From the NCBI GenBank assembly GCA_013388835.1, contig JACAEL010000026.1:92780-156779 (forward strand): DNA of 64,000 bases, given 5' to 3'. Each line of letters begins with the position of its first letter. The first letter of the stretch is position 1. The DNA is from Candidatus Thorarchaeota archaeon (GTDB lineage: Archaea; Asgardarchaeota; Thorarchaeia; Thorarchaeales; Thorarchaeaceae). This document shows, in pieces, positions 23,806 through 47,274 of the stretch. The position numbers and the translations under genes were made by a program. The notes below the pieces were generated by a model that saw only the letters and a program-made list of their open reading frames with translations, was not told the origin of the DNA and made no database searches.

Positions 23806-25695
23806 CTACCAGACAGTCATGCCGACGCCGTACGCCTTGTAGTAGTGGTAGAAGTACGCGTCATGCATGGGGTTGAACTGGTATCCGAACATGTAGTCGG
23901 CTTCCACATGGAATGACTGTGCCTGGTACGCCCAGATGTAAGCGCAGTGATCCACTATGGCGTCCTGAATCAGACCATAGTACTGCAGTCGGAGGGTGGC
24001 GTTCTGCGTCTGAGCTGCAGAGTTGATCCAGCCATCGACCAAGGCGGCATTCCAACCCGGTGAACCCGTAAGACCGATTCGGAGCGGGTAGGTACCTGTG
24101 CTCTTGACGAACGGACCAACGTAGTTGTCAGGGTCTGCGTAGTCAGGAGCCCAACCCAGGAAGAAGAGCGGGAGCTGCTTGTTCCTCACCTGGTAGAGGT
24201 ATGACGCCCACTCAAGCGCATTGACATTGATTGTCAGTGTCTGTGCCGGCTTGGTGGAGTCCGGGTGGTTCAGGATGGCAGTGATACCGTCCTTCATGAG
24301 GAGACAGGCTCTCTCGCGGTTGGTGTTGCCGCTGTTGTAGTATATGTCCAACGTGTAGCTCATGTTGGCAAGGATTGCGGGTAGACCCTTTGTCATGGCC
24401 TCGTTCCACTTATCAACAGCCTTCTCGATGTCGTACTCGTACATGAAGAGACTGTCGTTGTGGCCGAACATGCCTATTGGGATTGGTCCCTGTCCTTGCT
24501 GACCAAAGCCATTCAATACGTTGTCAATGTATGTTTTGTAGTTGAATGCGTAGGACAGTGACTCACGGAGCTCCTTTATCACAAACGGGCTAAGTACTGT
24601 ATTGCCGGAACGGTTCAAGTACTGGTTCATGTTAAATCCGAGGAACATCACATCGTAGGTTGGTTCTTGGGCCCACAGCTTCAGGAACGGATTGGCTGAC
24701 TTCAAGTTGCCGTCGCCGCTGGGACCAGTCACACCATTATAGATTTGTGTTGCGTGGCTGACAGGCCAGTAGCCGATGTCAGTCGTGTGGGACTGGAGGT
24801 TCAGAATCCTGCTGCTGACATCCTCGTTGGTCTTGATAGTGACCCTAGTGATGTTGCCTGCGTACGGGGTGACCTCTGTCTTTGCTGAAGCGGCACGCCA
24901 GTAGTTGGGGTTGACATCAAGCTGGATGTACTGGTCTGGCACCCACGCCGTGACCATGTACGGTCCGGTGCCACAGGTGTGCGAGTCGACGTAGTCGTTG
25001 TGTTCACCTATTGTGATGCCACCATGCGCCTCAACCCATGTTGGGCTCATCTGCGCACCGACTTCGTAGGTAATCGCGGCAAGGAATGCAGCGTATGGGT
25101 AGGCAAGGCGGAACCTGATGGTGTAGGTGTCAAGGACTATGATTGCACCTGTCCCTGCGTCATTAGCAGCCTTCCATGCAGTGTAGTTGCCGGCATGTTG
25201 TGGACTTCCCTCACCATACTCGTATGCGGCATCCTCAATTGCCTGTCCACCAAGGATTGGCTCGGCAAACATCCAGGCCGGTCCGAAGGTGTCGAAGAGT
25301 GCCATCACGCGCTCGAAGTTGTACTTGACACAGCTTGCATTGAAGGGTGTCCCGTCGTGGAACTTGACATTCTGGCGGAGAGTGAAGGTCCAGTTGAGGC
25401 CATCACCGGATACGGTGTATCCTGTAGCAAGCAGCGGCACTGATGGTGAGGTGTCAGCTGAATCCCAATCATACGTGTACAGGGTTTCATAGACATTGTA
25501 CGAGATCCATGAGCCGAATGACTCGTAGTCAGTATGGGGATCCAGATACTCGGGGTTACCGATTGTTTCATACACGATTTCGTTCTTTGCGGTCTTTATC
25601 TCCGGTCTGACGGGTTGCATGAACAGATAGGCCACACCGACAGAACCGACGATTACTACCACAATTACTATCGCGATAATCTGGTTCTTCTCCAA
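23806..25695 (-). CDS. ABC transporter substrate-binding protein, family 5 (Opp/Dpp/Nik-type), with an N-terminal membrane anchor.
   Basis: An N-terminal TM helix (IIAIVIVVVIVGSVGVAYLF) is followed by the SBP_bac_5 pattern (…VYETIGNPEYLDPHTDYESFGSWISYNVYETLYTYDW...). It is divergently oriented from the permease genes. Stop is TAG. Confidence 0.8.
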   Translation of the reverse strand: MEKNQIIAIVIVVVIVGSVGVAYLFMQPVRPEIKTAKNEIVYETIGNPEYLDPHTDYESFGSWISYNVYETLYTYDWDSADTSPSVPLLATGYTVSGDGLNWTFTLRQNVKFHDGTPFNASCVKYNFERVMALFDTFGPAWMFAEPILGGQAIEDAAYEYGEGSPQHAGNYTAWKAANDAGTGAIIVLDTYTIRFRLAYPYAAFLAAITYEVGAQMSPTWVEAHGGITIGEHNDYVDSHTCGTGPYMVTAWVPDQYIQLDVNPNYWRAASAKTEVTPYAGNITRVTIKTNEDVSSRILNLQSHTTDIGYWPVSHATQIYNGVTGPSGDGNLKSANPFLKLWAQEPTYDVMFLGFNMNQYLNRSGNTVLSPFVIKELRESLSYAFNYKTYIDNVLNGFGQQGQGPIPIGMFGHNDSLFMYEYDIEKAVDKWNEAMTKGLPAILANMSYTLDIYYNSGNTNRERACLLMKDGITAILNHPDSTKPAQTLTINVNALEWASYLYQVRNKQLPLFFLGWAPDYADPDNYVGPFVKSTGTYPLRIGLTGSPGWNAALVDGWINSAAQTQNATLRLQYYGLIQDAIVDHCAYIWAYQAQSFHVEADYMFGYQFNPMHDAYFYHYYKAYGVGMTVW

Positions 25696-26338
25696 TTTTC
25701 TTCCTCCTTAGAGAGGCTACTCGTCCGGGGCGCAACCACGCCCGGATCCCTTGTGTAGTCCCCGCCATCTGAACAAAGTATCACTAGATGACGAGTCGTC
25801 ACACATAGGCCAATGCATCCGGTTGTGGCATCTAATATAGCTTACTACTTCCGCTTAGTGGTTCTAGTTAGAGAACTGGTTGCAATGCTGCGGAGATTGG
25901 ACATATGAAACGCACTCTTGCAAGACTCCTATCTTTGAGTGCGAACGGTGTTACCGTTCTAATGCGCTTCTTGGTGAAGAGCGCATCCCCGGGCGGTTGC
26001 CAGATGTCGCTAGAACGATCTCAATCTTACAACGAGCACCCACATCGGGTGAATGGTAGAAACTCATCGTAGATGTGCCGCGATACTGCTTGCCTGTGCG
26101 TACTAGACTCAGGCATCAGTGCACATGCAACATGTGTATCTGATAGTAGTTTGTATAAAGCAACCGCAGCCTCATTGTGCTTAATCCGTAGTCGTTTTAA
26201 GGTGCCCACGATGGCATCTAATGTGCTGGGAGTGTGCCCCGGCAGTCAGTTAGCCTTAAGTGTCGATTCAGTGTGGCGGGGCACAATCCACAACAGGCAG
26301 GACCGTGAGCCTGCTTCATAGTCCCCGAGGCACAAGAC

Positions 26339-27394
26339 ATGAAGTTGCGTGATTTCATAATCAGGAGGATTCTCCTCGCCATTCCAGTGATTTTTGGAGT
26401 GGTCACAATCACATGGTTCCTGGCTTACATCGTCGGTGATCCGGTTGCGATGTTCGTCACTGAGAGAACACCTGACTCTGCCGTGCCCGGAATACGGCTC
26501 AGGTACGGGCTTGATGAGCCATTGTATGTTCAGTACTTCATATACCTCCGGAACTTGCTTCAAGGTGACTGGGGTCGAAGCTACAGCGAGGCTCAAGACG
26601 CGCCCGTCTTGACCGTGATTGCACAGAAGTTCCCTGCGACCATTGAACTTGCGATGATTGCCATGGTATTCGCAGTGATTCTCGGCATCCCACTGGGAAT
26701 TCTCTCTGCCACCAAGAAGGACAGACCGGTAGACCATGTGACGAGAGTGTTCTCGCTTGCTGGCGTTTCCATGCCCATCTTCTGGTTTGGGCTGATGCTC
26801 AAGTACGTGTTCTTCTACCAGTTCTGCATCAGCGGACTACCATATCTACCCGGAGACTCGCGGTTTGATCCAAATGTGTGGAGAGTTATGCTCGGGAACA
26901 ATGAGGGGTATGTACCTATCACGAATTTCCTGCTGCTGGACTCCCTTCTCTATCTATCCCCGGCGTGCTTCGTTGACGCGCTCAGGCACTTGATTCTTCC
27001 CGGATTCTGTTTGGGTTACTTGACACTGGCCATAATAACAAGGATGATGCGATCCAGTATGCTTGAGGTCCTCAAGGAGGACTACATCACACTCGCCCGG
27101 TCCAAGGGGCTGAAGGAGCGGACGGTCATCTACAAGCATGCTCTGAGGAATGCTCTCATTCCTACAGTCACGGTAGTTGGTCTTGCATTCGGTGGCCTCA
27201 TGTCAGGAGCTGTGCTAACCGAAACGATTTACAGCTGGCCCGGACTTGGTCGCTGGGCGACTAGGGCCATACTCCAGTCGGATCTCGCCGCCATCAACGG
27301 GTTCACTCTGCTTGTCGCTTTCATATTCGTGACAGCCAATCTACTCGTTGACCTGCTCTATGGAACACTGGACCCACGAATCAGGTTCGGATAG
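26339..27394 (+). CDS. ABC transporter permease, OppB/DppB-like.
   Basis: MKLRDFIIRRILLAIPVIFGVVTITWFLAYIVGDPV... is a BPD_transp_1 permease with the EAA-like loop (..RSKGLKERTVIYKHALRNALIPTVTV..). Stop TAG. Confidence 0.85.
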   Translation: MKLRDFIIRRILLAIPVIFGVVTITWFLAYIVGDPVAMFVTERTPDSAVPGIRLRYGLDEPLYVQYFIYLRNLLQGDWGRSYSEAQDAPVLTVIAQKFPATIELAMIAMVFAVILGIPLGILSATKKDRPVDHVTRVFSLAGVSMPIFWFGLMLKYVFFYQFCISGLPYLPGDSRFDPNVWRVMLGNNEGYVPITNFLLLDSLLYLSPACFVDALRHLILPGFCLGYLTLAIITRMMRSSMLEVLKEDYITLARSKGLKERTVIYKHALRNALIPTVTVVGLAFGGLMSGAVLTETIYSWPGLGRWATRAILQSDLAAINGFTLLVAFIFVTANLLVDLLYGTLDPRIRFG

Positions 27395-27398
27395 GAGG

Positions 27399-29123
27399 AT
27401 GAAAAACGTGAAGAATGACCAAGGTGCGACCTCTCATGTCTCTGAATATGGGTTATGGGGAAGACTCCTTCCGATACTGCAGACTGTGTTTGTCTTGACT
27501 GTCATTGCTTGTTCACTGATTTCGCTCGTGGGGCCCATAATCAGCTTCGTAATCTCTGTACTCGGATACACCATAGGCATTCCAGCAGTCTTGACTGGTT
27601 GGCCTCTGCAAGCATTCATTCTCATAATACTTGGCTTCATTGGCTTTGGCAACGCCAAGGCCATGTCTAGCTACGAGTCTTTTGCTTACTCCTCCACACT
27701 GCAGATGAACCTGCTGAGTGCAGCTGTTCTCATTACGATCGGTCCCTTGGGCTGGACACTGGCTCCAGTGTCCGTACTTCTGGTTGTCCCCATGTTTCAC
27801 AAGAACCTCAAGCCCCTCTGGTACGCAGAGTTCAGGGAGGACATGGGGCCCCGAATGAAAGAGCTGAGGTATAGCCTTCACCTGGTCCGCAAGAGCCCGC
27901 TTGTCGTCGTCGGTATTCTCATCATACTTGTGTTCGTGGGGATCGCAGTACTGGCTCCGTTCATTGCACCTTATGGCCCAGAGGAGCGAGTCTGGACGGA
28001 CCCCAAGGCTCCCCCCGGTGCAGTGTCTAATTCTCCCAAGTTCTCCCAGAGATACGTCGAGCGGATAAACAACACGGCTCCGCTGTACCTGCCGAACGAG
28101 ACCTACATTCAATTCACTGTGACACCTGAGGAAGTTCGACTCCTCGAAGAACTCCCGAATGTGTACATGTCTCTGTCCGTGCGTGGGACAAATGAAACAT
28201 ACTATGCGCAGATTTATGCTGCCGTATACGATGTTGGGCGGGCACAGCTCCTCTCCATGACCCCTGAGCAGAGAGCCCTCCATAGAATCGCCGAGAAGTA
28301 CGATACCAACACACTTAGAACAACAGTCACTCTCAAAGACGATTCCCGTGACTATACCTGGCACTACTGGTTGAACGTCAGTCATCCTGCGATGCCTTGG
28401 AACCTCACAGGTGCACTGGTATTGAGATACAACCACTACTATCCGATTCACATCTGGGGTGCCGACGAGAACGGTGGTGACATCTTCAGCAGGATTGTCT
28501 GGGCCGCGCAGGTCGACCTTAGACTATCCGTGACCATAGTCGTCGTGGCCGTAGTGATAGGTGCGATGATAGGAGCCGTCGCAGGATACTACGGTGGAAA
28601 GATAGACGAGCTGATGATGAGGGTCACGGACATATTCTTCGCATTTCCAGGCCTGATACTCGCGATGGCCATTGTGATGGCACTGGGACAACGAAACCTG
28701 GAGAACATATCTTTGGCTCTAATGGTGACATGGTGGCCCGTTTATGCAAGACTTGTGCGGGGGCAAGTGCTTACGGAGCGTGAGAAGCTCTACGTTGAGG
28801 CCGCGCGGTCGGTCGGAGCCAGCGATATGAGGATTCTGCTTGTTCACATCCTTCCTAACACATTCCAGCCTCTGATAGTGCAGGCCACCCTAGACACTGG
28901 TGGAGTACTGCTGACTGCTGCAGGCCTGTCATTCATAGGTTTTGGAGCACAGGCTGGAGTCGCTGAATGGGGGTTGATGATTTCCACAGGACAGCTGTAC
29001 CTCACTGAGGCTCCATGGATGTCCCTCTATCCGGGTCTTGCCATTCTCATGACTGCGCTCTCTTTCAATCTGGTAGGAGATGGAATAAGGGACATATTTG
29101 ATCCCAAGCTCAGACGGAGGTAG
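27399..29123 (+). CDS. ABC transporter permease, OppC/DppC-like, with an extra N-terminal membrane region and a large extracytoplasmic insertion.
   Basis: The C-terminal half matches OppC (…GADENGGDIFSRIVWAAQVDLRLS...IFFAFPGLILAMAIVMALGQ...ARSVGASDMRILLVHILPN...). AGGAGG precedes the ATG at ~27399, directly after the TAG of the upstream gene. The first ~150 aa add 3-4 TM helices. A ~170-aa sequon-bearing loop is inserted before the core. Confidence 0.8.
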   Translation: MKNVKNDQGATSHVSEYGLWGRLLPILQTVFVLTVIACSLISLVGPIISFVISVLGYTIGIPAVLTGWPLQAFILIILGFIGFGNAKAMSSYESFAYSSTLQMNLLSAAVLITIGPLGWTLAPVSVLLVVPMFHKNLKPLWYAEFREDMGPRMKELRYSLHLVRKSPLVVVGILIILVFVGIAVLAPFIAPYGPEERVWTDPKAPPGAVSNSPKFSQRYVERINNTAPLYLPNETYIQFTVTPEEVRLLEELPNVYMSLSVRGTNETYYAQIYAAVYDVGRAQLLSMTPEQRALHRIAEKYDTNTLRTTVTLKDDSRDYTWHYWLNVSHPAMPWNLTGALVLRYNHYYPIHIWGADENGGDIFSRIVWAAQVDLRLSVTIVVVAVVIGAMIGAVAGYYGGKIDELMMRVTDIFFAFPGLILAMAIVMALGQRNLENISLALMVTWWPVYARLVRGQVLTEREKLYVEAARSVGASDMRILLVHILPNTFQPLIVQATLDTGGVLLTAAGLSFIGFGAQAGVAEWGLMISTGQLYLTEAPWMSLYPGLAILMTALSFNLVGDGIRDIFDPKLRRR

Positions 29124-29129
29124 AGAGAG

Positions 29130-30374
29130 ATGACAATAGCACAGAGTGAACTTGCCCTGAAAGTGAAAGGACTTCGTATGAACTTCTACACGTACGAAGG
29201 TGTTGTGAAAGCGCTCGACGGAGTCGAGATACGCCTCAAACGTGGTGACACAATGGGCATCGTGGGAGAGACTGGCTGTGGCAAGTCTGTCACTGCCAAG
29301 TGTATCCTTCGTCTGATAGAGCCGCCCGGACGAATAGAGGGCGGCCAGGTCCTGATATACGACACCGACCCTCAGACCGGAAAGGTTGTGGAACGAGACA
29401 TTCTGAAGCTGACAACCGAGGAGATGCTCGATATCAGGGGCAACCGCATCAGTATCGTCTTTCAGGACCCTGCCACCTACCCGAACCCGGTCTTCCGTGT
29501 AGGCGACCAGATAGCAGAGGTTGTCCTTCTGCACCAAGATCTTCGGAGAGATGCACTTCAGCTGAAGATTGACGAGCTGCGAGGAATGCTGTCTGCAGCA
29601 GAAGGCGATGCAACACAGGTTGGTGAGCACAAAGACTCATGCGAGTCAGGGGAACCCGTGAGAGCAAGGAGCCTGTCTCCAGAGAAGATGGCGAAGATAC
29701 GAGAGCAGATTGCCAAATACGAGTCGATGCTTGAGAATCCTCCAAAGCCTGACAAGAAGTACGCCAAGAAGGCGGCCATGCGTCGAGCAATAGAGATGCT
29801 GCGGATGGTTAAGATGCCCTCTCCCGACAGGGTAGCAATGCAGTATCCCCACGAGCTCTCCGGAGGTATGCGCCAGAGAGCGCTAATCGCCATGGCCTTG
29901 GCGAGCAACCCCTTACTCTTGATCTGTGACGAGGCTACGACGGCACTGGATGTGACTGTCCAAGCTCAGGTCCTCAATCTGCTTAACGAACTCAAGAAAG
30001 AGATTGGCAGCTCAATCATGATAATCACGCATGACCTCGGTGTCGTGGCGGAGACGTGCAACTCGGTCACTGTGATGTATGCGGGCAACACAGTCGAGAG
30101 TGCCTCTACGAAGGAGCTGTTCGAGAATCCTGTACATCCATACACAATTGGGCTGCTCCAGGCAATACCCAAGCTCCATGAGAACAAGGAGCGGTTGGAC
30201 CAGATTCTGGGCACGGTGCCCAATCTAATCAACCCTCCTTCAGGCTGCAGATTTCACCCTCGGTGTGAATATGCCACAGCAGAGTGCTCCGGGGTCAAAC
30301 CGGAACTGAAGGAGGTGCGCCCCGGTCACTGGGTCGCGTGCTACCATCCTCAAGGCAGAGTCGGAGGCGAATGA
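29130..30374 (+). CDS. oppD: ABC transporter ATP-binding protein, OppD/DppD-type, with a helical insertion.
   Basis: Walker A GETGCGKS, signature [15 protein letters not shown], Walker [13 protein letters not shown], and the C-terminal oligopeptide-ATPase domain (GCRFHPRC). A ~70-aa charged insertion (…[13 protein letters not shown]...[13 protein letters not shown]…) precedes the signature motif. Confidence 0.9.
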
Positions 30375-30375
30375 G

Positions 30376-31407
30376 ATGACAGAAGCACTTGTGAAGGTCA
30401 TAGGCCTTAAGAAGTACTTCCCGCTGACTGGCGGCGTCTTCAGAAAGGTCGTAGGCAAAGTACACGCGGTTGATGATGTGAGCTTCGAAGTATACAGGGG
30501 AGAGACCCTTGGGGTTGTTGGTGAGAGTGGTTGCGGCAAGACGACACTGGGCCGAACCATCCTTCGTCTGATCAATCCCACGGCCGGACAGATCATCTTC
30601 GACGGCCAGGACATCTCACGCCTCTCAGCAAGGGCGATGAGAGAACTGCGCGGTCAGATGCAGATAGTCTTCCAAGATCCCATGGCATCACTGGACCCGC
30701 GAGTCACCATCAAGAACTCTGTTGGAGAACCTCTTGTTGTCAATGGCGTTGCGCGTGGCCCAAAGATGCGTGAAATGGTACTCTCGTTGCTCGAAAAGGT
30801 CGGTCTCACAGAGGATCACCTGAACCGGTTCCCGCACGAGTTCTCTGGCGGACAGAGACAGCGCATTTGCATTGCCAGGGCCCTCGCTCTGAACCCCAAG
30901 TTCGTGGTCATGGATGAGCCCACCTCGAGCACTGATGTTTCAGTCCAGGCGCAGACACTGAATCTAATGAAGGACCTTCAACATGAATTCAAGCTCACAT
31001 ACATGTTCATCTCCCACAATCTCAGTGTTGTCAAGCACATGAGCGACAGGATTGCAGTCATGTACCTTGGTAAGATAGTTGAGCTCACACCGCATGACAT
31101 CTTCAGGAAGACCCTGCATCCCTACACGTTCGCTCTGGTGTCAGCAGTACCTGTGCCGGACCCGAAGTTTGCCGGGAGAGCACAGATCCTTCCGGGAGAG
31201 GTCCCCAGCCCCATCAATCCACCTGTGGGATGCAGATTCAATCCACGTTGCATATTCGCACAGGAGATATGCAGAACGCAGGAACCGGAGCTTAGAGACA
31301 TGGGTGATGGGCATCTGGTCGCTTGCCATTTCGCGGGTGAGCTTGACTTTGGCAAGAGCTCCCAGATGGAGTATGCTCAGGCCGACACTGCGGCGCAAGG
31401 GTTGTGA
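30376..31407 (+). CDS. oppF: ABC transporter ATP-binding protein, OppF/DppF-type.
   Basis: Walker [10 protein letters not shown], signature [15 protein letters not shown], Walker [13 protein letters not shown]-terminal GCRFNPRC. Its start overlaps the oppD stop (ATGAGATG). Confidence 0.9.
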
Positions 31408-31687
31408 CAGCTCGCCCGGGAGAGCGCCCAGAGAAGCCTCAGTACCTCAGGAGGTCAAAGACCCCGTGAGAGAGAATGAAGACGGTGACCACACCATAGA
31501 AGAGCGTACTGATTGGGATGAGTATGTGCACATCCCGGAAAACAGGCAGGAGAGCGTGAGCCTTGAGCTGAAGGACTATGTCGCGCTGTTCATAGCAGCA
31601 CTGCAGACAGTCTTCCTGCCGCTGGTCATTCTCTCCGTACTTCTCGTCGCAGCCGCTCTGGCCTTCACATTTCTCTGGTGAACCATC

Positions 31688-32038
31688 ATGCCTATCGACT
31701 GGGAACGGTACAGGTCTGTCATGGAGCCAATGGCAGTGGCCTCTGCCATCTCTGTCTTTGACCTACTCCTAGCACTGGTTGTCTTTCTCTTCGACCCCAC
31801 GAGGAACGTGTATTTCATTGCCTCAGATGCGCTCTTCCTGGAGTTCGGCGTAATGCTGGTTCTAGGGGCTTGTTTCATGTCTAGGGAACCAATCTCCGAG
31901 GCGGCCCGGCAGAAGGCGGATGGGACTCCTACGACGTCATGGCGTCTCTCACAGTTGGGCAAGAAGATACTGTATTCGACGGTCTTTGTCTTCCTCTTTG
32001 GCCTGTTGTTTGTAATTGTCGGCTATGCACTGAAATGA
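31688..32038 (+). CDS. Small hypothetical membrane protein (116 aa).
   Basis: Two to three hydrophobic helices (AVASAISVFDLLLALVVFLF; LFLEFGVMLVLGACFM; STVFVFLFGLLFVIVGYAL) on the same strand as the opp genes, downstream of them. Confidence 0.45.
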   Translation: MPIDWERYRSVMEPMAVASAISVFDLLLALVVFLFDPTRNVYFIASDALFLEFGVMLVLGACFMSREPISEAARQKADGTPTTSWRLSQLGKKILYSTVFVFLFGLLFVIVGYALK

Positions 32039-32824
32039 CTACCATCGCATTCCTGACGCCATCTCTTCCTCTTCCGACCGCCCTCCACTGAAGCGAGTCC
32101 AGACTGCCCGGGGTATGATGTAGAAGGCAAGCACTATCACCAGACCAATGTACACCATGGCAAGTGCCAGACTCCAGCCTGCGAGTGTTAACGCGGGGTA
32201 CAGGACGAGATACACTATCAGAGTGGAGATGCAGTGCGCTACCAGTGTTGGCACTTCTTGAGCCCAGGGCGCCAACAGGATGAACGTGATGCCAATGATG
32301 GCGGACCTTGCAGTCCACTGACGGACGGAATCCACTGCAATCTTGAAGTAGAGATAGTCATGCGCACACAAGCTCCTCCAGTCTGCTTTGCCCAAGTCCT
32401 CAAGGTACTTCTCGGAAATGCGGGGCCCGGAAGGTCCCAGTATTACCAGAAAGGTCATGGCGAAGACCGCCACTGCTCCACCAAAGAGCGCGATGGACTC
32501 TACTAACAACAACGTGAGAATGACTGCTGCACTGCTCATGACCAGTGCAATCACAAGGAAAGCGGCTAGCGTACGAGTGTTCAGAATGTCCTCAAAGAAG
32601 AGTCTCAGGTGGGTAGGTCTGTCAGAACTGATGTTCTCCATGGCCCACTTGTGAGAGTAGCACTCAGAGGGAACACCCTGCGCTGATGGGTCGAGGGATG
32701 AGACATCATAGTACTGGCGAATCCTGTCTCCGTGCTTCTCCAGTTGTACTAGTCCTCGTCCTCTGATTGCCGTTCGCACCAAGACTAGTACACCGCTGAC
32801 AATGAACGCAACACCGAGGTCCAA
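32039..32824 (-). CDS. Hypothetical polytopic membrane protein (261 aa).
   Basis: Several predicted TM helices (LAAFLVIALVMSSAAVILTLLLV; AVAVFAMTFLVILGPSG; IIGITFILLAPWA; LIVYLVLYPALTLAGWSLALAMVYIGLVIVLAFYII). No recognisable family. Confidence 0.5.
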   Translation of the reverse strand: MDLGVAFIVSGVLVLVRTAIRGRGLVQLEKHGDRIRQYYDVSSLDPSAQGVPSECYSHKWAMENISSDRPTHLRLFFEDILNTRTLAAFLVIALVMSSAAVILTLLLVESIALFGGAVAVFAMTFLVILGPSGPRISEKYLEDLGKADWRSLCAHDYLYFKIAVDSVRQWTARSAIIGITFILLAPWAQEVPTLVAHCISTLIVYLVLYPALTLAGWSLALAMVYIGLVIVLAFYIIPRAVWTRFSGGRSEEEEMASGMRW

Positions 32825-32842
32825 CTCTCAGCATCTCCAGCT

Positions 32843-33754
32843 CTACAGTGAATACCTCTCCCGTACCAGTCCTTCCAGTACGATGAGCCACATGCATCCA
32901 AGCAGTTCTCTTGAGGAGTCACCGCCTGTCTGCGCAGGCAATCCCAGAAGCAACACGACGTCCCCTCTGAGGGCGTTCTCAGCGTACTGCCCAGTCTTGA
33001 GTCTGAAGAGGCTTCCGTCTCCACTGATAGAAAGCCCCAGATCATGAAACGTCCTTGGACTATCACAGTACCTGTAGTCGAAGTCACGACTGAGGTCCGG
33101 CAGAATCTGGGTGTCTGGTCCAGATACTCGTATCCGAAGCCTGAACTGGCGCAAGACATAGTGAGCGACCAAGTCCTTCCGACCAGTTCCAGCCGGTATC
33201 AGAATGGGCCTGCCCTCCGGCCTCTCGACCAGACGCGCCTCGACAAGACCGGAGAAGTCACCACATTCACCTGTGAACACAACCTCATCATGGCGGTCGA
33301 TGTCTACAGCGAGATCCCCTATGACTTCTCTCTTCACTCCCTCAGGGTTGTCCTTGGTCTCGGCGCCAGGTTCCCAGTGAAACCACGGGACGGTCAGCAT
33401 CGGGAGCATCTTGTCCGGGTATGACCGCTTCCGCTCCATGATCTTCTGCGTGGCTGGATTCGTCACAAACAGAGCAAGTGAGAGAGGACGAACGCTTCTC
33501 AGATGTTCCTTGAGGAACTGAACCGCAGCTCCTCTGTCCGGGCACAGCGACCTTGTCGCTTCCACAAGCTGAGCAATGGTCAGCTGAACCTGTCCTGCGG
33601 TGTCTATCTCCTGTTGCTGCGAGTAGTTCAGGGCGAAGCTGACTCCAAGTCGCTCTGACACAGCGTCAAGAGATCTGGAATCCAATCTGACTCGGGCTGC
33701 CACACTCGAATCGTCTGTGAGTCTAGCATAATCCTTCCGGTCTGCGCCACCCAA
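32843..33754 (-). CDS. Hypothetical protein (303 aa), family not recognised.
   Basis: Long ORF with soluble-protein-like composition and no motif I can assign. Confidence 0.4.
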   Translation of the reverse strand: MGGADRKDYARLTDDSSVAARVRLDSRSLDAVSERLGVSFALNYSQQQEIDTAGQVQLTIAQLVEATRSLCPDRGAAVQFLKEHLRSVRPLSLALFVTNPATQKIMERKRSYPDKMLPMLTVPWFHWEPGAETKDNPEGVKREVIGDLAVDIDRHDEVVFTGECGDFSGLVEARLVERPEGRPILIPAGTGRKDLVAHYVLRQFRLRIRVSGPDTQILPDLSRDFDYRYCDSPRTFHDLGLSISGDGSLFRLKTGQYAENALRGDVVLLLGLPAQTGGDSSRELLGCMWLIVLEGLVRERYSL

Positions 33755-33799
33755 TGGATATCTTGAATACCGCTACGAGTCTGGCAATCCCGAGCCGAT

Positions 33800-34657
33800 T
33801 TGACAGACGAAGCCAGTCACACACGCAGCAGCCATATCGACAGATGGCTGAGAGTCTTTAACGGAGGCCAGAGGAACAGTGGCGACACTCAGCCATTGAT
33901 TCAACAGGACTTGGTGCGACTCGTAAGAGACCGTGTTGTGGACTTCGACGCGCTTCATCTCTCAACCAGAAGACGGACCCCCGTTGCTGCTTGCAGACTG
34001 AGCGTTTCACCCGTTCGAGGGTCGATGGCTCTTGCAGACCTAGCATACCTTCCCGGGGAGCGCGAATCCGCGGAGTCGTTGATGGAAGTCGGTCTTGCAA
34101 AGGCGAGGGAACAAGGTCTCTCAGAACTGGTGATGTGGGTCAGCGAGAAGGCAACAGCAATCGCTGACATGACTGCGTGCTTCTGCTTTGAAGCGAGAAA
34201 AATACGGGCTAGGTATGTCAGAACACTGGCCGCCGAAGGAGAACCACCGACAGGTGAGCAGTCGTGCCGCACGGAGCCTGCAACAGGCCCTGGCCGCCTC
34301 TCTCAACTCCTTCTTGGGGGCGTCCCCAGTCTTACAGACCTCGTCTCTGAGTGGAAGAGCCCGTTCACAGTCGCTGTCAAGGACACAGATGTCTCCGTGA
34401 GCGTCTACGAGTCCGAGGACTCTAGGAGAGAGTGCTGGATTCACTTTCATAGCAAGAATCCGACAGACTGCAGAATGAGCATCTCCGTATCCACCCTCGA
34501 AGCCGTATTGGCTCTGCTGTACAGAAGAGGGGTCCGAAATGTCAACACCGAGGTGTGTCTTGATCATCACTTGAATGACTCACTCTCGCAAGCGGGATTC
34601 GAGCTCGTTACAACATACTATGAGATGGTGATGTCGTTACAACAGGCCGAGGACTAG
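33800..34657 (+). CDS. Putative GNAT-family N-acetyltransferase, possibly a tandem GNAT fold.
   Basis: …LMEVGLAKAREQGLSELVMWVSEKATAIADMTACFCFEARKIRARYVRTL… resembles the GNAT acetyl-CoA-binding core. Two overlapping - strand ORFs exist, and the call rests on motif resemblance only. Confidence 0.4.
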   Translation: MTDEASHTRSSHIDRWLRVFNGGQRNSGDTQPLIQQDLVRLVRDRVVDFDALHLSTRRRTPVAACRLSVSPVRGSMALADLAYLPGERESAESLMEVGLAKAREQGLSELVMWVSEKATAIADMTACFCFEARKIRARYVRTLAAEGEPPTGEQSCRTEPATGPGRLSQLLLGGVPSLTDLVSEWKSPFTVAVKDTDVSVSVYESEDSRRECWIHFHSKNPTDCRMSISVSTLEAVLALLYRRGVRNVNTEVCLDHHLNDSLSQAGFELVTTYYEMVMSLQQAED

Positions 34658-34860: not shown

Positions 34861-36105
34861 ATGCGCGGGCGTGATGAACACTATATGTTATCCCGCTCTG
34901 CGATCGTGCTGATGTTATTGCTTGAACTCATCTGCGGTCTGCAGGTCTATCAGCGGCTTTACCAGGTCTTCTTGGTGGATGGGGGAGTGATATTTGGAGA
35001 TGTTACTTGCCACTACTTCCCGGCAGGCATGGCCATCATCAACGGGCATTCTCCATATGATAGTCCATTCATTACTCATCCGCCGCTGATGTTGCTGTTG
35101 TTCGCGGCTGCCGTGTATGTACATCCAGCCCCGTACTCGATTGGCATCCTCATCATGTGCACATACTTCCTATTGCCTCCGCTGGCTCTTGTGACTGCAT
35201 TGCAGCGTCTTAGCGAGCGCCTATCGGTTCTGACTGCGTGGGTTGTCACGCTCAATCCACTGACTACTCATGGATTCGTTGTGCTCATCGACGATGACGT
35301 GATTATCATGCTCGGGCTGCTGGTAGTCGTATGCCTCTATCCTCGTCACCGTGTTGCATCCTCATTGGCTGCTGCCATCTTTGGGGGAATGAAGTTCGTT
35401 CCCCTTCTGGCTGGTGTGTTCTTGGTCATGTTGGACAAGAATACCTGCCTGGCGTGTCGTCTTCGTCTTCTGTGCCTTCAGGCTGTGGTCTTCTCATGTA
35501 TCATGGTGTTGGGCACCGCGCTCTGGGGGTCGGTGACTCTGACTCGCTTGCTTCACTACACTTCCTACGTGAAGATTGACTATCCCGCCATGAACCCCTA
35601 CTACGTCCTCTTCGTCTTCTGCCATGTACCTGAGTACCTGCTTAGACTAGCGTCGGGCGTCGCAGCGGCCGTTCTAGTCAGCGCCTACTTCCTCTTCCGG
35701 AGGAGATCTCAAGGCGAGGGTCCGGATTGGACTGTGCTGGACGCAACTGTCGCCTGTGTAGTGGTGCTCTTGGGCAACGTTGAGACGAGCTACATGTACT
35801 ACTCTTGGTTGATACCACTTGCCTCACTAGTCGCGCTTGGTGCTCTGGCCCAGAAGCGTATCGTGACTTCCCTCTGCCTGCTAATTGAGTGCGTGGTATT
35901 TGGCTATCTTGCCTCCGAGTGGGCCTACTACACATGGGCCTACGGGGAATCCTTCTTGGTATGGGCATACGTGGCGTCATGTATTGCCCCGTTCGTCCTT
36001 CTGTGCGTCCTGGCAGTCGCTTGTACATCAAGAACGCAGCAGGATGCGGGCTCAGTTACCTTCAAGAGGACTATGCAGTGGGAAGGAGTCGTTGGAGTGC
36101 GATGA
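34861..36105 (+). CDS. GT87/DUF2029-like polytopic membrane protein; putative GT-C family glycosyl(mannosyl)transferase.
   Basis: Ten or more hydrophobic helices. The N-terminal loop GDVTCHYFPAGMAIINGHSPYDSPFITHPPLMLLL fits the D..Y..A...G.sPY....YPPl signature of DUF2029/GT87. Its stop overlaps the start of the downstream ATPase (ATGA). Confidence 0.45.
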   Translation: MRGRDEHYMLSRSAIVLMLLLELICGLQVYQRLYQVFLVDGGVIFGDVTCHYFPAGMAIINGHSPYDSPFITHPPLMLLLFAAAVYVHPAPYSIGILIMCTYFLLPPLALVTALQRLSERLSVLTAWVVTLNPLTTHGFVVLIDDDVIIMLGLLVVVCLYPRHRVASSLAAAIFGGMKFVPLLAGVFLVMLDKNTCLACRLRLLCLQAVVFSCIMVLGTALWGSVTLTRLLHYTSYVKIDYPAMNPYYVLFVFCHVPEYLLRLASGVAAAVLVSAYFLFRRRSQGEGPDWTVLDATVACVVVLLGNVETSYMYYSWLIPLASLVALGALAQKRIVTSLCLLIECVVFGYLASEWAYYTWAYGESFLVWAYVASCIAPFVLLCVLAVACTSRTQQDAGSVTFKRTMQWEGVVGVR

Positions 36106-37187
36106 ATGACGAGGTCATCCTGCGCGTCAGGAATCTGAGAGCGTTCTACACATCTTCTAAGGGTCTGGTCCGGGCTGTAGACAATGTCAGCTTCGATCTG
36201 AGAGAGGGCGAGTGCATCGGCATACTGGGGGAGTCAGGATGTGGTAAGAGTTCCATGGCACTCGCGATAATGGGTCTTTTCGAGAGAGTCGCTCGCTATT
36301 CTGCAGGTACCTCGAATGTCCCTGGTCTACGTCAGGAGTTTGATAGAGGTCTTACTGCAGCGGGAGAGAGTCGGCCGGGTGTTCAAGGGAAGGTGTTCTT
36401 CAGGGACTTGGAACTGACCGCCCTTCCGGAGGAGGAGTTCGTAAAGATCCGGGGGCGGCAGATCTCATTGATTCCCCAAGGTCTCCAGCATGCGCTCAAT
36501 CCTCAGTACAGCATCGGCTATCAGACTGGGGAGCCTGTTGAGGTCCACGAAGAGAACATTCGTCTGATACAGCTGAAGCGTCGTGTACTGGAGTACCTCG
36601 GACTGGTCAGCATCGCAGACGCAGGCACAAGGTTCGTCCTTGACCCGAGTTCTTTCTCTGGTGGCGAGGCGCAACGGATTCTCATTGCAATGGCCCTGAT
36701 AGCCGGGCCCCATGTGGTCATAGCTGACGAGCCCACGTCTGCACTGGACGTCACCATACAACGTCAGATCATGAACGTCATGGCGATGATTCGTGATGAG
36801 TTCAGTGTTAGCCTGATACTGATAAGCCATGACGCTGGTGTGATTGCTGAGCTTGCTGACCGCGTCGCTTGCATGTACGCAGGCAGGATCATGGAGATTG
36901 GAACCGCAGAGCAGATGTTCCTGAGACCTTCACATCCTTACACTATGGGTCTGATGAGTTCGTTCCCCACCATTGCAATGATGAGAATGAAGGCAGGCGG
37001 GAAGAGACCCGTCCTACGAGGGATTCGGGGCGACCCGCCAGACCTCACGAACGTGCCGAGCGGATGTCCCTTCCATCCCCGCTGCGACTACGCCATTGAC
37101 CGATGCAGGACCGAAGTCCCGGAGTTCAGAGAGGTGGAGAAGGACCATTGCATAATGTGTCATAGGTATGGAGAACTCACCACCTGA
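36102..37187 (+). CDS. Orphan ABC ATP-binding protein, OppD/F-type (oligopeptide-family C-terminal domain).
   Basis: Starts MNDEVILRVRNLRAFY. Walker A GESGCGKSS, signature FSGGEAQRILIAMAL, Walker B VIADEPTSALD, C-terminal GCPFHPRC. A ~50-aa insertion after Walker A is shared with the convergent ATPase. No ABC permease lies adjacent. Confidence 0.85.
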   Translation: MNDEVILRVRNLRAFYTSSKGLVRAVDNVSFDLREGECIGILGESGCGKSSMALAIMGLFERVARYSAGTSNVPGLRQEFDRGLTAAGESRPGVQGKVFFRDLELTALPEEEFVKIRGRQISLIPQGLQHALNPQYSIGYQTGEPVEVHEENIRLIQLKRRVLEYLGLVSIADAGTRFVLDPSSFSGGEAQRILIAMALIAGPHVVIADEPTSALDVTIQRQIMNVMAMIRDEFSVSLILISHDAGVIAELADRVACMYAGRIMEIGTAEQMFLRPSHPYTMGLMSSFPTIAMMRMKAGGKRPVLRGIRGDPPDLTNVPSGCPFHPRCDYAIDRCRTEVPEFREVEKDHCIMCHRYGELTT

Positions 37188-37376
37188 CCTGCAATCACGA
37201 CCTGTCCTATCGCCACACAGTTCAGCGTTGTCCAACCGCGCGTTGCCAGCGACCTTCCGACAACAGGACGATACTGAATCGGTAGTGCCTCCTGCCGTTG
37301 GGCTAAGTTGCGTAGGCGACACCGAGGACTCACGCTCAGCCTGATGTTGCGGTGGACCTGACTGCTGAAGAGGCGA

Positions 37377-38504
37377 CTAGAACTCGGGCAGTCGCTCGTA
37401 TAGGTGGCAGGCAACCCAATGGCCCGGTTCGACCTCTCTGTACTCTGGCACTTCCTGACGACAGACCTCATCGCAGTACTCGCACCTGGGGTGAAAGACG
37501 CATCCCTTAGGGGGGTTGGTCAGGTCTGGGGGCGAACCCGGGATGCCTCGTATTCTGAGCCCCTTCTGACGTATCCGCCACATCATCTCCATGGAGGGAT
37601 TGCTCATGACGAAAGCCCTGGTGAATGGATGACCGGGTGACTTCAGGACGCGCACGGTGCGGCCGAACTCCACAATCTTTCCCGTTGTCATCACTGCAAC
37701 GCGGTCAGTGACGGCAGCTTGGAGTCCTTGGTCGTTGCTTATCATGAGAAAGGCAAGGCCGACCTTCTTCCGAATGAGGTCAATGGCGTCCATCACACGT
37801 TGTTGAACACCTGGATCGAGTCCTGTTGTTGGTTCGTCTGCAATCATCAGAGAGGGTCTGGTAATGAGAGCCATGGCTATCATCACACGTTGGTCCTCTC
37901 CAACGCTGAAGTCACTTGGCTTGAGGTCCTTTCTCAGGTCCACCTCCGCCAGGTCCACAAGGTCTAGGACCTCCAAGACCCTCCGAAAGACCTCACGCTC
38001 AATCAGTATGTTGTCCTCATCGTGGACCCAGAGAGACTCGGCAGTCTGGATGTTGATGGTGGTGTAGGGGTTCATTGACTTCTTTGTTCCCTGCGGTACG
38101 TATGTGATCTCGTTTCCCCTTATCTTGCGATAGTCCTCCTCGCTCAGAGCAAGCAGGTCTTTTCCCTTGAACCATATGTGACCCTCGACACCAGGGAGTG
38201 TCACTCCGAGATCGGTTGATGACAGACCCTTCCGTCTTGCCTCGTCCCTCATCTCCCAGAGTCGCTTGTTGTGCTCGTCTCCCGACGATGAGGCGTAGTA
38301 CCTCGAGACTTGGTCGAAGATGCCCATTATGGCCAATGCCACAGATGTCTTGCCCGCACCAGACTCTCCGAACAGCCCGACTGACTCACCCTCGCGAATG
38401 TCAAACGACACATCATCGACTGCCCTTACAAGTCCCTTCTTGGATGTATAGTACGCTCTGAGGTGTTCAACTCGAAGAACGGTCTCATCGTCTGCACCAG
38501 ACAT
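37377..38504 (-). CDS. Orphan ABC ATP-binding protein, OppD/F-type; paralog of 36102..37187, in convergent orientation.
   Basis: Walker A GESGAGKTS, signature (FSVGEDQRVMIAMAL), Walker B MIADEPTTGLD, C-terminal GCVFHPRC, same insertion after Walker A. The start was chosen at MSGADDETVLRV; the ORF could extend to 38630. Confidence 0.8.
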   Translation of the reverse strand: MSGADDETVLRVEHLRAYYTSKKGLVRAVDDVSFDIREGESVGLFGESGAGKTSVALAIMGIFDQVSRYYASSSGDEHNKRLWEMRDEARRKGLSSTDLGVTLPGVEGHIWFKGKDLLALSEEDYRKIRGNEITYVPQGTKKSMNPYTTINIQTAESLWVHDEDNILIEREVFRRVLEVLDLVDLAEVDLRKDLKPSDFSVGEDQRVMIAMALITRPSLMIADEPTTGLDPGVQQRVMDAIDLIRKKVGLAFLMISNDQGLQAAVTDRVAVMTTGKIVEFGRTVRVLKSPGHPFTRAFVMSNPSMEMMWRIRQKGLRIRGIPGSPPDLTNPPKGCVFHPRCEYCDEVCRQEVPEYREVEPGHWVACHLYERLPEF

Positions 38505-38719: not shown

Positions 38720-39994
38720 ATGTCTGATTCTTCCGCTCGACTGCTCCCAGTCTACGTACCATACCTGCTCCAGTCAATGGCGCAGGCCATAAGCTGGCAG
38801 TTCGTTACGTACTTCGTCAAGCACGACCTCGGCGTCGAGTCCTTCCTGCTTCTCACCGTAGTGTGGGCGGTTCCTGCGCTGGTCACAACGGTTGCCGTGA
38901 ACGTGTGGGGGGCGGTTTCCGACCGGATTGGGAGGAAGAAACCATTCATGCTGGTCGGTTTCATCGGATATGCTTCCACATTCCTGTTGTACTCTCAGGT
39001 CACGGACGCTGTCCAGTATCTTGTCGTCGCCTGCTTCGGAGCGCTGATGGGCTCTGCCTCAGTGCCGGTCGGTCAAGCATACGTGACGACAGGGACAGAA
39101 AAGCGGGGTGAACGCCTTGGGTACTTGCTTGTCGTGCAGTCCGCCGGATGGTCCGTCGGAGCATTGTCCAGTGGTGTCTTGTATGACGTGGTCGGAATGC
39201 GCGTCCTCTACGTTGTGGCTGCCTCTCTGGCCATCGTAGCCACGGTGAGCTGTGGGCTGTTCGTCATGGACATGCGTATCCATGTGACCTCGACGGAAGA
39301 GCGTGTCAGGTTCTCAGTAGTGATGAGACGGCCGGGGATGGCCAGACTGACTCTTGCGGCCTCTCTCAGCGCTATCGGGAACAATGCCATTGCCTGCATG
39401 CTGATGATCATGGTTGTCGATGAGCTGGGCGGCACAGAGGGCATGGTTGGCCTTGCCAATGCGCTGGCGACTCTGCTTGCCGTCGTGTTTACAGGTTTCG
39501 TTGGTAAGCTCACCGACCGCAAAGGCCCTGTCAAGGTGCTCGTGATAGCTTACTCATCGTATGTCTGCTTCGCCACGGCATTTGCACTTGCGACGGACCC
39601 GTGGGTGGTCACTGCGCTCTATGCATTGCCAATCTACCCGTTGGCGTCCACCGCCGCATTCGCCTATGCAGCAAGGGTCTCGAAGGAGTCTGAGCGGAGT
39701 ACATCAATGGGACTAGTCAATGGAGCGCAGAACGCAGGGGCGGCACTGGGGCCCATTATCGGTGGTTTGTCTGCAGAGTTCGTCTTCCTTCGTGTGCAGC
39801 CAATCTCGTGGCTGAACATGCTGTTCAACCTGCTTGCACTCCTCTTCGCTCTCTCTCTGTTGAGAGTCTGGGCCGGTCTTCACGCGCAGGACAGGGCCAC
39901 TGACACGCACTCCGTCAGGAGCCCCATCGAGAAGGTGTCAGGCCTAGTCGAGGGGAATGTCTCGTCCGTTGATGAACACACGGACGGGCTTTGA
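38720..39994 (+). CDS. MFS (major facilitator superfamily) transporter.
   Basis: Twelve-helix hydrophobic profile, MFS loop-2/3 motif GAVSDRIGRKKPFMLVGF, and two repeated 6-TM halves. Confidence 0.8.
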   Translation: MSDSSARLLPVYVPYLLQSMAQAISWQFVTYFVKHDLGVESFLLLTVVWAVPALVTTVAVNVWGAVSDRIGRKKPFMLVGFIGYASTFLLYSQVTDAVQYLVVACFGALMGSASVPVGQAYVTTGTEKRGERLGYLLVVQSAGWSVGALSSGVLYDVVGMRVLYVVAASLAIVATVSCGLFVMDMRIHVTSTEERVRFSVVMRRPGMARLTLAASLSAIGNNAIACMLMIMVVDELGGTEGMVGLANALATLLAVVFTGFVGKLTDRKGPVKVLVIAYSSYVCFATAFALATDPWVVTALYALPIYPLASTAAFAYAARVSKESERSTSMGLVNGAQNAGAALGPIIGGLSAEFVFLRVQPISWLNMLFNLLALLFALSLLRVWAGLHAQDRATDTHSVRSPIEKVSGLVEGNVSSVDEHTDGL

Positions 39995-46996: not shown

Positions 46997-47274
46997 GCCC
47001 TTGATTGTGCCGGAAAAGTGCCTTTCATCATAAGTATGATATCCATTAGTATATCCTTTATGCTCTATATCGCTCTTACAGGACGGAATATACCCAGATT
47101 GTGTATTAAATCGTATTCCATTGCATTATGGACGTCAGTGGATATATGAGTGTGTAATGTGGCGATGCAAATCCCATAAGTGCGCTCGTGCCTAAGTCAT
47201 TGACAGGCTGCGGACACAACGGAGCAGATCTCAAGGCACACCTGAAGTATCACGAGCTAAGGAGCAACTCGCAC
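46997..47274 (+). promoter_or_regulatory. AT-rich intergenic region upstream of the GH3 gene, with TATA-like elements (candidate archaeal promoter).
   Basis: Local AT content is much higher than the window average (…TATATCCTTTATGCTCTATATCGC…TGTATTAAATCG…GGATATATGAG…). AAGGAG lies 12 nt before the ATG at 47275. Confidence 0.3.

Follow-up and report, generated by a model that had tools for sequence, protein, structure and literature searches.

Where a gene for a polytopic membrane protein runs into the start codon of an ABC ATPase gene, the question is whether the two products work together. Such a place lies in the 64,000-nucleotide stretch of a Candidatus Thorarchaeota genome analysed here (the window): the stop codon of a putative membrane glycosyltransferase gene overlaps the start of an OppD/F-family ATPase gene (ATP1), and a paralogous ATPase gene (ATP2) faces the latter (Table 1). 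A preliminary description proposed that the three form an ATP-driven module, flippase or exporter, handling a glycan or lipid-linked oligosaccharide. Were that so, the locus would encode a glycan-handling machine of a new kind, a GT-C glycosyltransferase driven by an ABC motor; what follows speaks against it, and follow-up effort is spared. We consider it probable that the locus is a lineage-specific juxtaposition, produced by rearrangement, of two unrelated systems: a GT-C enzyme and a pair of ATPases.

Table 1. Coordinates of the analysed features in the window.
Feature	Position	Strand	Remarks
Canonical oligopeptide ABC transporter	23806..31407	.	OppA (-), OppB, OppC, OppD, OppF (+); own two ATPases
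OppA	23806-25695	-	
OppBCDF	26339-31407	+	ends 3.45 kb upstream of the membrane protein gene
Conserved five-gene block hypA-E	31440..34657	.	between OppF and ATP1; tblastn synteny
hypE	ends 31681	+	matched by its tail
hypD	31688-32038	+	
hypC	32039-32824	-	
hypB	32843-33754	-	
hypA	33800-34657	+	
GT-C-fold (GT87-like) divergent membrane glycosyltransferase (predicted)	34861..36105	+	414 aa
Stop/start overlap ATGA, GT-C gene/ATP1	36102..36105	+	read from sequence
ATP1, OppD-like ABC nucleotide-binding protein	36102..37187	+	361 aa
Spacer between the convergent ATPase genes	37188..37376	.	189 bp; lacks the GC-rich palindrome of relatives
ATP2, degenerate OppD-like ABC protein	37377..38504	-	375 aa; orientation as in relatives
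MFS transporter	38720..39994	+	divergent from ATP2; conserved neighbour of the pair

The membrane protein

The membrane protein has approximately 10–12 hydrophobic segments. Its earlier assignment as GT87/DUF2029-like stands by profile and fold comparison only: the Pfam and NCBIfam HMMs give no matches to it at E ≤ 0.01, the gathering threshold of Pfam PF09594 (GT87/DUF2029) is not reached, and its close relatives P0126–P0128 likewise match no Pfam family at E ≤ 0.01. The profile of its family yields 43 matches among 1.8 billion representative sequences; 37 of these (34 remote and three close family members) were scanned with Pfam, and GT87 is found in 21 of them, PMT_2, PIG-U, or PIG-M in others. 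Sequences from the PDB show no matches to the family profile. In profile–profile alignment (hhalign), the family and GT87-like proteins align over 289 columns with 99% probability and an E-value of 4.4e-18.

The invariant residues of the family are Asp47, the putative catalytic base, conserved in all eight members; His51; Tyr52; Asp144–Asp146; and Lys178. Asp47 and Lys178 align with the invariant Asp and Lys of GT87-like proteins, the former also with the invariant Asp of GT87-positive proteins, while Tyr52 aligns with the conserved GT87 Tyr after a one-residue shift. The protein has the GT-C core module, being polytopic with N-terminal transmembrane helices, and Asp47 lies where the catalytic Asp of GT-C enzymes is expected, in the first extracytoplasmic loop (JM1) directly after TM1.

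The closest known systems are PimE, the mycobacterial polyprenyl-phosphate-mannose-dependent alpha-1,2-mannosyltransferase (CAZy GT87, Pfam PF09594; PDB 9dm5); GPI mannosyltransferase I (PIG-M/Gpi14, GT50; 9wno); and PIG-U of the GPI transamidase (7w72). Eukaryotic GPI-pathway proteins are among the best structural matches. In PimE, Asp58 is the catalytic base, Tyr62 is essential, and Lys195 is among the residues that coordinate phosphate and whose mutants are inactive (PMC12041525); their equivalents here are Asp47, Tyr52, and Lys178. The structural identity to PimE is 16%, and the invariant Asp144–Asp146 triplet, together with other family-specific motifs, sets the archaeal family apart from it.

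Profile and predicted fold together mark the membrane protein as a GT87-like glycosyltransferase of the GT-C fold. Judged by PimE and the other GT-C(A) enzymes, it would most likely take a sugar from a polyprenyl-phosphate donor, presumably dolichyl-based as the protein is archaeal rather than mycobacterial, on the outer, extracytoplasmic face of the membrane, and transfer it to a lipid-linked or protein-linked glycan, with Asp47 as the catalytic base and Lys178 holding the donor phosphate; this rests on fold and motifs. GT-C enzymes draw on sugars already activated as lipid phosphates and do not require ATP, and no ATPase partner is known for any of them.

The branch is apparently very small and Asgard-restricted, with GT87, PIG-M, and PIG-U as its nearest relatives: approximately eight members are seen among the 1.8 billion representatives, the closest to the window protein being 42% identical, and scans for further loci returned a single, already known one in species-representative genomes and a single one, truncated at the gene, in JGI metagenome contigs. 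Current Pfam and NCBIfam models miss this branch, and its structural matches to the GPI pathway make it of some interest to the question of how eukaryotic membrane glycosylation is rooted in archaea. An alternative start of the gene at ATG 34885 (Met9) agrees with the N-termini of homologues and with a TATA-like CTAAAATC at approximately 34841. A foreign origin of the gene was considered and ruled out by GC, GC3, and codon usage; since GC and GC3 match those of the neighbours, the gene is native.

The ATPase pair

ATP1 and ATP2 are 48% identical, and both contain the ABC_tran and oligo_HPY domains in Pfam, so that the earlier description of two paralogous OppD/F-type ATPases with a shared insertion is borne out. 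The top NCBIfam models are OppD/DppD for both, at 275 bits (ATP1) and 237 bits (ATP2), well under equivalog cut-offs (575 bits for PRK09473 OppD); an equivalog-level match to OppD or OppF is not reached. Orthologues of ATP1 (66–78% identical) occur in many Thorarchaeota assemblies and those of ATP2 (63–75%) are likewise widespread in this group. We take the two for a pair of OppD-like nucleotide-binding proteins that is found throughout Thorarchaeota and originated by duplication.

The best solved relatives are OppD and DppD of Mycobacterium tuberculosis and OppD/DppD of Escherichia coli, with E-values of 1e-94 to 1e-61 for OppD/DppD structures (M. tuberculosis Rv1281c, 8j5q; E. coli DppD/DppF, 8z1v; T. 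tengcongensis DppD, 4fwi). In ATP1 all motifs are canonical (Walker A GESGCGKSS, Q-loop PQG, signature FSGGE, Walker B IADEP, H-loop SHD). Unlike OppD/DppD, ATP2 has a degenerate signature (FSVGE) and H-loop, with Asn in place of His (ISND); the loss of this His and of the second signature Gly is retained in all 15 ATP2-like sequences, with the pattern FS[VM]GE. Also unlike OppD/DppD, both proteins carry a family-specific insertion of 28–40 residues directly after the Walker A helix, longer in ATP2; in ATP1 it is helical, comprises 28 residues (66–93), and has no counterpart in M. tuberculosis OppD, nor does the OppF of the window contain it.

The C-terminal domain is shared with OppD/DppD down to the C-x5-C-x6-C-x17-C motif. 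Cys322, Cys328, Cys335, and Cys353 of ATP1 are invariant in 40 sequences, ATP2 has the same four, and the spacing is identical to that of E. coli DppD. In E. coli DppD/F, cysteines so spaced bind a [4Fe-4S] cluster, and assembly with the permease in DppBCDF depends on them (PMC12136057).

Both proteins are OppD-like, and thus do not make up a D+F pair as in Opp/Dpp importers. As ATP1 is catalytically canonical and ATP2 degenerate, the two would most likely form an asymmetric heterodimer. The model of ATP1 is poor (pLDDT <50) at residues 130–149 and 169–178 of the helical subdomain, the part expected to dock onto a permease.

Gene order in relatives

We compared 11 contexts, namely five GT-C homologues with a readable downstream region and six loci with ATP1 orthologues (L007, L008, and L010–L013). 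The closest relatives are only 78% (ATP1) and 42% (GT-C) identical, and what is compared is conservation beyond the genus. None of the five GT-C homologues is followed by an ATPase gene; downstream are genes for a methyltransferase (L001), adenylosuccinate lyase (L002), a NosD-like protein (L003), a LiaF-like protein (L005), and an MFS transporter (L015). Conversely, none of the six ATP1 loci contains a GT-C gene. The preliminary description had itself named conserved linkage in relatives as the test of its module, and with 0 of 11 contexts retaining the linkage the proposal fails that test.

Several neighbours were considered as candidates and rejected: the 417–418-aa proteins of L001 and L005 are not GT-C paralogues but unrelated TPR-like soluble proteins; the unannotated neighbours of ATP1 in L011 (337 aa) and L010 (401 aa) are not hidden GT-C homologues, one being soluble and the other a single-anchor surface protein, both unrelated; and the L015 MFS transporter is not orthologous to that of the window.

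The five-gene block hypA-E, which has no Pfam matches and in which two genes encode membrane proteins by hydrophobicity (the small hypC and hypD), is conserved and anchors the synteny, thereby revealing an inversion of ATP1. In relatives, the MFS gene is divergent from an ATP2–ATP1 tandem, or ATP1 stands alone, beside five genes of unknown function and the canonical opp operon. By tblastn synteny, OppBCDF, hypB, hypC, hypD, ATP2, the MFS gene (52% identical to that of L007), and the amidohydrolase gene, also downstream of the pair, retain their relative orientation; only ATP1 is flipped, as compared to all six relatives examined. Hence, ATP1 came to adjoin the GT-C gene when it was inverted out of the ancestral ATP2–ATP1 tandem. 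This tandem would have stood beside the MFS gene and close to the canonical opp operon, with a few genes in between, and the inverted ATP1 would have landed directly behind the GT-C gene. Repeats, inverted or direct, on either side of the segment could account for the event, but the search for them found nothing beyond matches at chance level and the paralogy between the 3' ends of the two ATPase genes.

The inversion and the adjacency might also be a mis-join, given that the source is a metagenome-assembled genome, that the arrangement is unique among the seven genomes compared, and that the GT-C and ATP2 proteins of the window are absent from the protein collection, where ATP1 is present. 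We hold this to be very unlikely, however: at both junctions the ORFs are clean and full-length, no gene is truncated, and the ATGA overlap is in frame; the segment has no flanking repeats that could cause a mis-join; GC content and codon usage are uniform; and assemblers do not typically err by inverting 1.1 kb inside a long contig.

Signals at the gene overlap

The overlap itself is as earlier described: in gcgATGAatg, the TGA of the GT-C gene (36103–36105) overlaps the ATG of ATP1 (36102–36104), with GGAG located 4 nt upstream of the latter. Alignment with orthologues supports a start of ATP1 at 36102. Relatives have a TATA-like box approximately 35 nt upstream of the ATP1 start and, directly past its stop, a GC-rich palindrome GTGAGCGCC-N4-5-GGCGCTCAC; both are absent in the window, and this box and the 3' hairpin would have been lost with the inversion. 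Scanned for the TATA consensus, the window as a whole did not rise above chance level, and Rfam and tRNA scans of the window gave no matches.

Given the overlap, the GGAG, and the missing TATA-like box, we infer that ATP1 is likely co-transcribed with the GT-C gene in this genome, probably since the inversion, so that its expression would now be tied to that gene. Such a tie could be favoured by selection. Co-transcription is, however, no evidence for a physical or mechanistic partnership of the two proteins, and the locus is a clear example of a rearrangement-born 4-bp overlap that mimics a functional operon.

One machine or two systems

The same signals, namely the overlap with its upstream GGAG and an ATP1 devoid of its own TATA-like box, are what would be expected if the GT-C protein and the ATP1/ATP2 dimer were one machine for flipping or exporting a lipid-linked glycan that the former builds or transfers, and the lack of an adjoining permease and the giant sequon-rich proteins of the window would fit it too. 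These giant proteins, earlier said to be encoded nearby, are real, but they lie at a distance of 17 kb or more and are not linked to GT-C homologues elsewhere. Against the machine are, besides the linkage missing in all five GT-C and all six ATP1 contexts, the distributions of its parts: the pair is widespread in Thorarchaeota and the GT-C family is rare, hence nearly all owners of the pair do without this GT-C protein. Further, the nucleotide-binding domains are of the importer-type Opp/Dpp family, their [4Fe-4S] domain for permease assembly being intact, and in the GT-C model (moderate confidence, pLDDT 67.8, mostly in the N-terminal half) short loops alone link the helices and no coupling helix is obvious. 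We regard such a machine as extremely unlikely.

Known ATP-driven handling of lipid-linked glycans, as by Wzm/Wzt, TagGH, and PglK, relies on ABC2-type or fused exporter membrane domains and on nucleotide-binding domains of other ABC families. The locus resembles these systems only in the general idea: its nucleotide-binding domains are importer-type and, as far as is known, differ in type from those of Wzt, TagH, or PglK that serve glycan export, which counts against the machine, and no ABC2_membrane or ABC_membrane match is found nearby, the membrane proteins there being only the GT-C protein and the MFS transporter. A variant in which the inversion was selected, with the ATP1/ATP2 dimer docking onto the GT-C protein as a nascent ATP-powered glycosyltransferase or lipid-linked-glycan flippase, strains belief to a similar degree; to our knowledge, there is no precedent for an importer-type ABC motor combined with a GT-C fold.

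Possible roles of the ATPase pair

With the GT-C enzyme and the ATPase pair taken as separate systems, the pair has to be accounted for on its own. No permease or binding protein stands beside it in the window, in agreement with the earlier observation and unlike in OppD/DppD systems, and no permease adjoins it in the six relatives. It could, accordingly, be a soluble ABC module outside transport, in a regulatory or enzymatic complex, for which PhnK/PhnL of C-P lyase are a precedent, or work with hypC/hypD; its adjacency to the GT-C gene would still be incidental. The H-loop and signature losses fixed in ATP2, the family-specific insertion, the low-confidence helical subdomain, and the conserved synteny with hypA-E, two of which are membrane proteins, are consistent with that. 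Nevertheless, the pair keeps the Q-loop Gln, the Walker motifs, and an oligo_HPY/[4Fe-4S] domain that is complete, the canonical opp operon is always close to it, and ATP1 is convergent with hypA, which excludes a single operon with the hyp genes; we find either role unlikely.

As a separate transport system, the ATP1/ATP2 dimer would power a permease pair of the Opp/Dpp type; candidates are the neighbouring OppBC, for which it would be an alternative motor, and a permease encoded elsewhere. Such a case is documented in Borrelia burgdorferi, where one OppDF heterodimer serves two permease pairs, its genes, like those of ATP1 and ATP2, being unlinked from the permeases they energise (PMC5736914); unlike there, ATP1 and ATP2 come in addition to a canonical OppDF in a nearby operon. 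A spare asymmetric OppD-like pair with a conserved degenerate subunit, widespread in Thorarchaeota, is a question for Asgard transport physiology. The canonical opp operon with its own D and F, correctly placed upstream in the preliminary description, is located approximately 3.5–5 kb from the pair; its OppB, OppD, and OppF are orthologous to those of the relatives' opp operons (64–85% identity), and OppC, split in some relatives, is 41–75% identical.

Locus Organization

The stop codon of the gene for the 414-aa polytopic membrane protein (GT-C protein) overlaps the start of the gene for the OppD-like ABC ATPase ATP1 as ATGA, read from the sequence at 36102; in the alignment, this start matches the N-termini of ATP1 orthologues. 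The genes of ATP1 and its paralogue ATP2 are convergent, 189 bp apart, and neither a permease nor a binding protein was found in the flanks of the pair, while the canonical oligopeptide transporter (opp) operon upstream has its own D and F subunits. All locus features of the preliminary description, i.e., the overlap with an OppD/F-type ATPase, the facing paralogue with a common insertion, and the ATPase pair standing apart from a complete opp operon, were found, and its observation is thus confirmed. The window also encodes archaeal markers, e.g., a DHH-CID (GAN/RecJ-like) protein.

Canonical OppC is unusually long (591 aa, with an N-terminal extension). In canonical OppD, the helical subdomain is enlarged by an insertion of ~95 aa, so that the ABC_tran match is split over residues 29–271. 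Among the five genes without family assignment between OppF and ATP1 (hypA–hypE), small membrane proteins are encoded by hypC (about 5 TM), hypD (3–4 TM), and hypE (C-terminal anchor); hypA is loosely GNAT-like, by eye only. A large protein collection holds a 100% identical entry for ATP1 (P0006, Candidatus Thorarchaeota MAG), but none for the GT-C protein or ATP2 on its two sides, for which gene calling or collection coverage may be the reason.

Coordinates of features in the window and at related loci
Feature	Coordinates	Strand	Remarks
Giant ORF	4373–11611	+	2412 aa
Giant ORF	11957–17776	+	1939 aa
OppA	23806–25695	-	
OppB, OppC, OppD, OppF	26339–31407	+	
OppC	27348–29123	+	
OppD	29130–30374	+	
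hypE, hypD, hypC, hypB, hypA	about 31440–34657	mixed	
GT-C protein	34861–36105	+	
ATP1	36102–37187	+	361 aa
ATP2	37377–38504	-	375 aa
MFS transporter	38720–39994	+	
Amidohydrolase	39944–41002	-	
DUF4140/DUF4139 protein	42924–44525	-	about 530 aa; tandem paralogue of the next
DUF4140/DUF4139 protein	44540–46135	-	about 530 aa
GH3-family protein (acyl-acid amido synthetase type)	47188–48819	+	full three-domain; Asgard archaeon
Giant ORF	57455–63862	-	2135 aa
ATP1 3' palindrome, locus L007	9093–9114		
ATP1 3' palindrome, locus L008	9092–9114		
ATP1 3' palindrome, locus L011	9092–9114		
ATP1 3' palindrome, locus L012	9120–9141		
ATP1 3' palindrome, locus L013	4697–4718		
GT87 protein, locus L002	989–3073	-	694 aa; neighbours 1–936 and 3086–4794

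Identity of the Membrane Protein

Direct Pfam and NCBIfam scans of the GT-C protein gave zero matches, and its family profile matched no PDB sequence. The family is tiny: five homologues were found in 5.8 billion clusters, and a profile search of 1.8 billion representatives retrieved about eight close members. Two of these have an organism name, and they are labelled Thorarchaeota and Lokiarchaeota (GTDB title Promethearchaeota). With E≤1e-3 as the limit, the profile also detects 38 proteins that are more remote. When 37 profile matches (34 remote proteins and three close family members) were scanned with Pfam, 21 were assigned to GT87, and others to PMT_2, PIG-U, or PIG-M. Alignment of the family with six GT87-positive proteins by hhalign yielded 99% probability (E 4e-18, 289 columns), with the invariant D47 and K178 of the family aligned to an invariant Asp and Lys. 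These residues occupy the positions of D58, the catalytic base, and K195 of the GT87 enzyme PimE, where D58, Y62, and K195 are each essential and K195 is among the residues tested for donor-phosphate coordination (PMC12041525). Judged by the profile matches, the hhalign result, and the Asp/Lys alignment, the protein is a divergent GT-C enzyme from the GT87/PIG-M/PIG-U neighbourhood. The earlier GT87/DUF2029-like label holds at the level of profile search and hhalign; however, there is no Pfam-level GT87 membership. GC, GC3, and codon usage of the gene are native.

A bona fide Pfam GT87 protein is encoded at the Lokiarchaeota/Promethearchaeota locus L002. Its gene belongs to a GT2/GT4/NTP-transferase cluster and lies ~5 kb away from the homologue of the GT-C family, so that two GT-C types coexist in one genome.

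The ATPase Pair

Both ATP1 and ATP2 contain ABC_tran and the C-terminal oligo_HPY domain (Pfam); their best NCBIfam models are OppD/DppD, with scores well under the equivalog cut-offs, and their closest solved relatives are NBDs of peptide importers. They are 48% identical and have in common an insertion directly after the Walker A helix. For residues 66–93 of ATP1, M. tuberculosis OppD has no equivalent, and the model shows them as a helical excursion, at moderate confidence. ATP1-like proteins have the signature xFSGGExQR (23/23 sequences), canonical Walker A and B, and, in the variants listed, the H-loop His; ATP2-like proteins have FS[VM]GE in the signature position (15/15) and, among the variants listed, Asn or, in one sequence, Ser for the H-loop His. 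Unlike in the usual asymmetric ABC dimers with one degenerate site, both degenerate elements reside in one subunit, ATP2, while ATP1 is canonical. Both proteins keep the C-x5-C-x6-C-x17-C motif, which in E. coli DppD/F holds a [4Fe-4S] cluster on which their assembly with DppBC depends (PMC12136057).

The most economical reading of these sequences is an asymmetric ATP1/ATP2 heterodimer that would energise an Opp/Dpp-type permease, either the neighbouring OppBC, with the pair as an alternative motor, or one encoded elsewhere; Borrelia Opp offers a precedent for NBD sharing (PMC5736914). A role of the pair outside transport seems unlikely to us.

Conservation of the Linkage

The preliminary description asked whether the glycosyltransferase is linked to the ATPase pair in relatives; this linkage is not conserved. 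The genes downstream of GT-C homologues encode a methyltransferase at L001, adenylosuccinate lyase at L002, a NosD-like protein at L003, a LiaF-like protein at L005, and an unrelated MFS protein at L015; one more locus is cut off at the gene. Reciprocally, the GT-C gene is found at none of the six ATP1 orthologue loci read (L007, L008, L010–L013), all of which have ATP1 followed by the hypA–hypE block and the canonical opp operon. By tblastn, hypB, hypC, or hypD (one or two per locus) was matched in five of these six Thorarchaeota relatives; L007 gave no hyp match above threshold, but its genes follow the same pattern and the tail of hypE is matched there.

The ATPases themselves are widespread, with >120 orthologue clusters each (66–78% identity for ATP1, 63–75% for ATP2). 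At L007 and L008, ATP2 stands in tandem ahead of ATP1, with a divergent MFS gene. This tandem is probably common, since several small contigs (e.g., 4454, 7935, and 8265 bp) have matches to both, co-occurrence being deduced from equal sizes in the two match tables.

Inversion of ATP1

Comparison with the six loci (tblastn) shows that opp, hypB/C/D, ATP2, MFS, and amidohydrolase genes keep their mutual orientation, and that only ATP1 is reversed in the window. Flanking repeats that might explain the inversion were sought, and none were found; a mis-assembly at this point we regard as quite improbable. In the relatives, a TATA-like box (CTTATAT, TTTAATA, or CTTAAAT) lies about 35 nt before the ATP1 start; in the window this position is GT-C coding sequence, only the start-proximal ~15 nt being alignable, and the GT-C promoter now probably drives ATP1. 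In the GT-C protein, the C-terminal ~27 residues lack conservation and are modelled with low confidence, consistent with an ORF that just continues until the first stop it meets at the new junction.

At five loci, a perfect GC-rich palindrome, GTGAGCGCC-N4-5-GGCGCTCAC, follows the ATP1 stop by 3–5 nt; it is absent in the window and in L010. Possible explanations are a conserved hairpin at the 3' end, as a terminator or stability element, and a site bound by a protein. Other intergenic DNA of the five loci is not alignable.

Because the linkage is unconserved and the inversion explains it, the GT-C/ATP1 adjacency is best treated as incidental, which we consider likely. A genuine new coupling of the GT-C protein to the ATPases, proposed earlier as an ATP-driven glycan or lipid-linked-oligosaccharide flippase or exporter, is very improbable. 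Glycan-export ABC systems combine ABC membrane domains with other NBD families, and neither is present at this locus; GT-C enzymes take their energy from the lipid-phosphate sugar and are not known to have an ATPase partner. Both the GT-C protein and the ATPases belong to known kinds.

Other Features of the Window

The sequon-laden giant proteins noted earlier were recovered as three ORFs with 51, 44, and 31 N-x-S/T sequons (in order of coordinates), about 2–2.8 times the naive composition-based expectation, which would fit surface proteins with heavy N-glycosylation.
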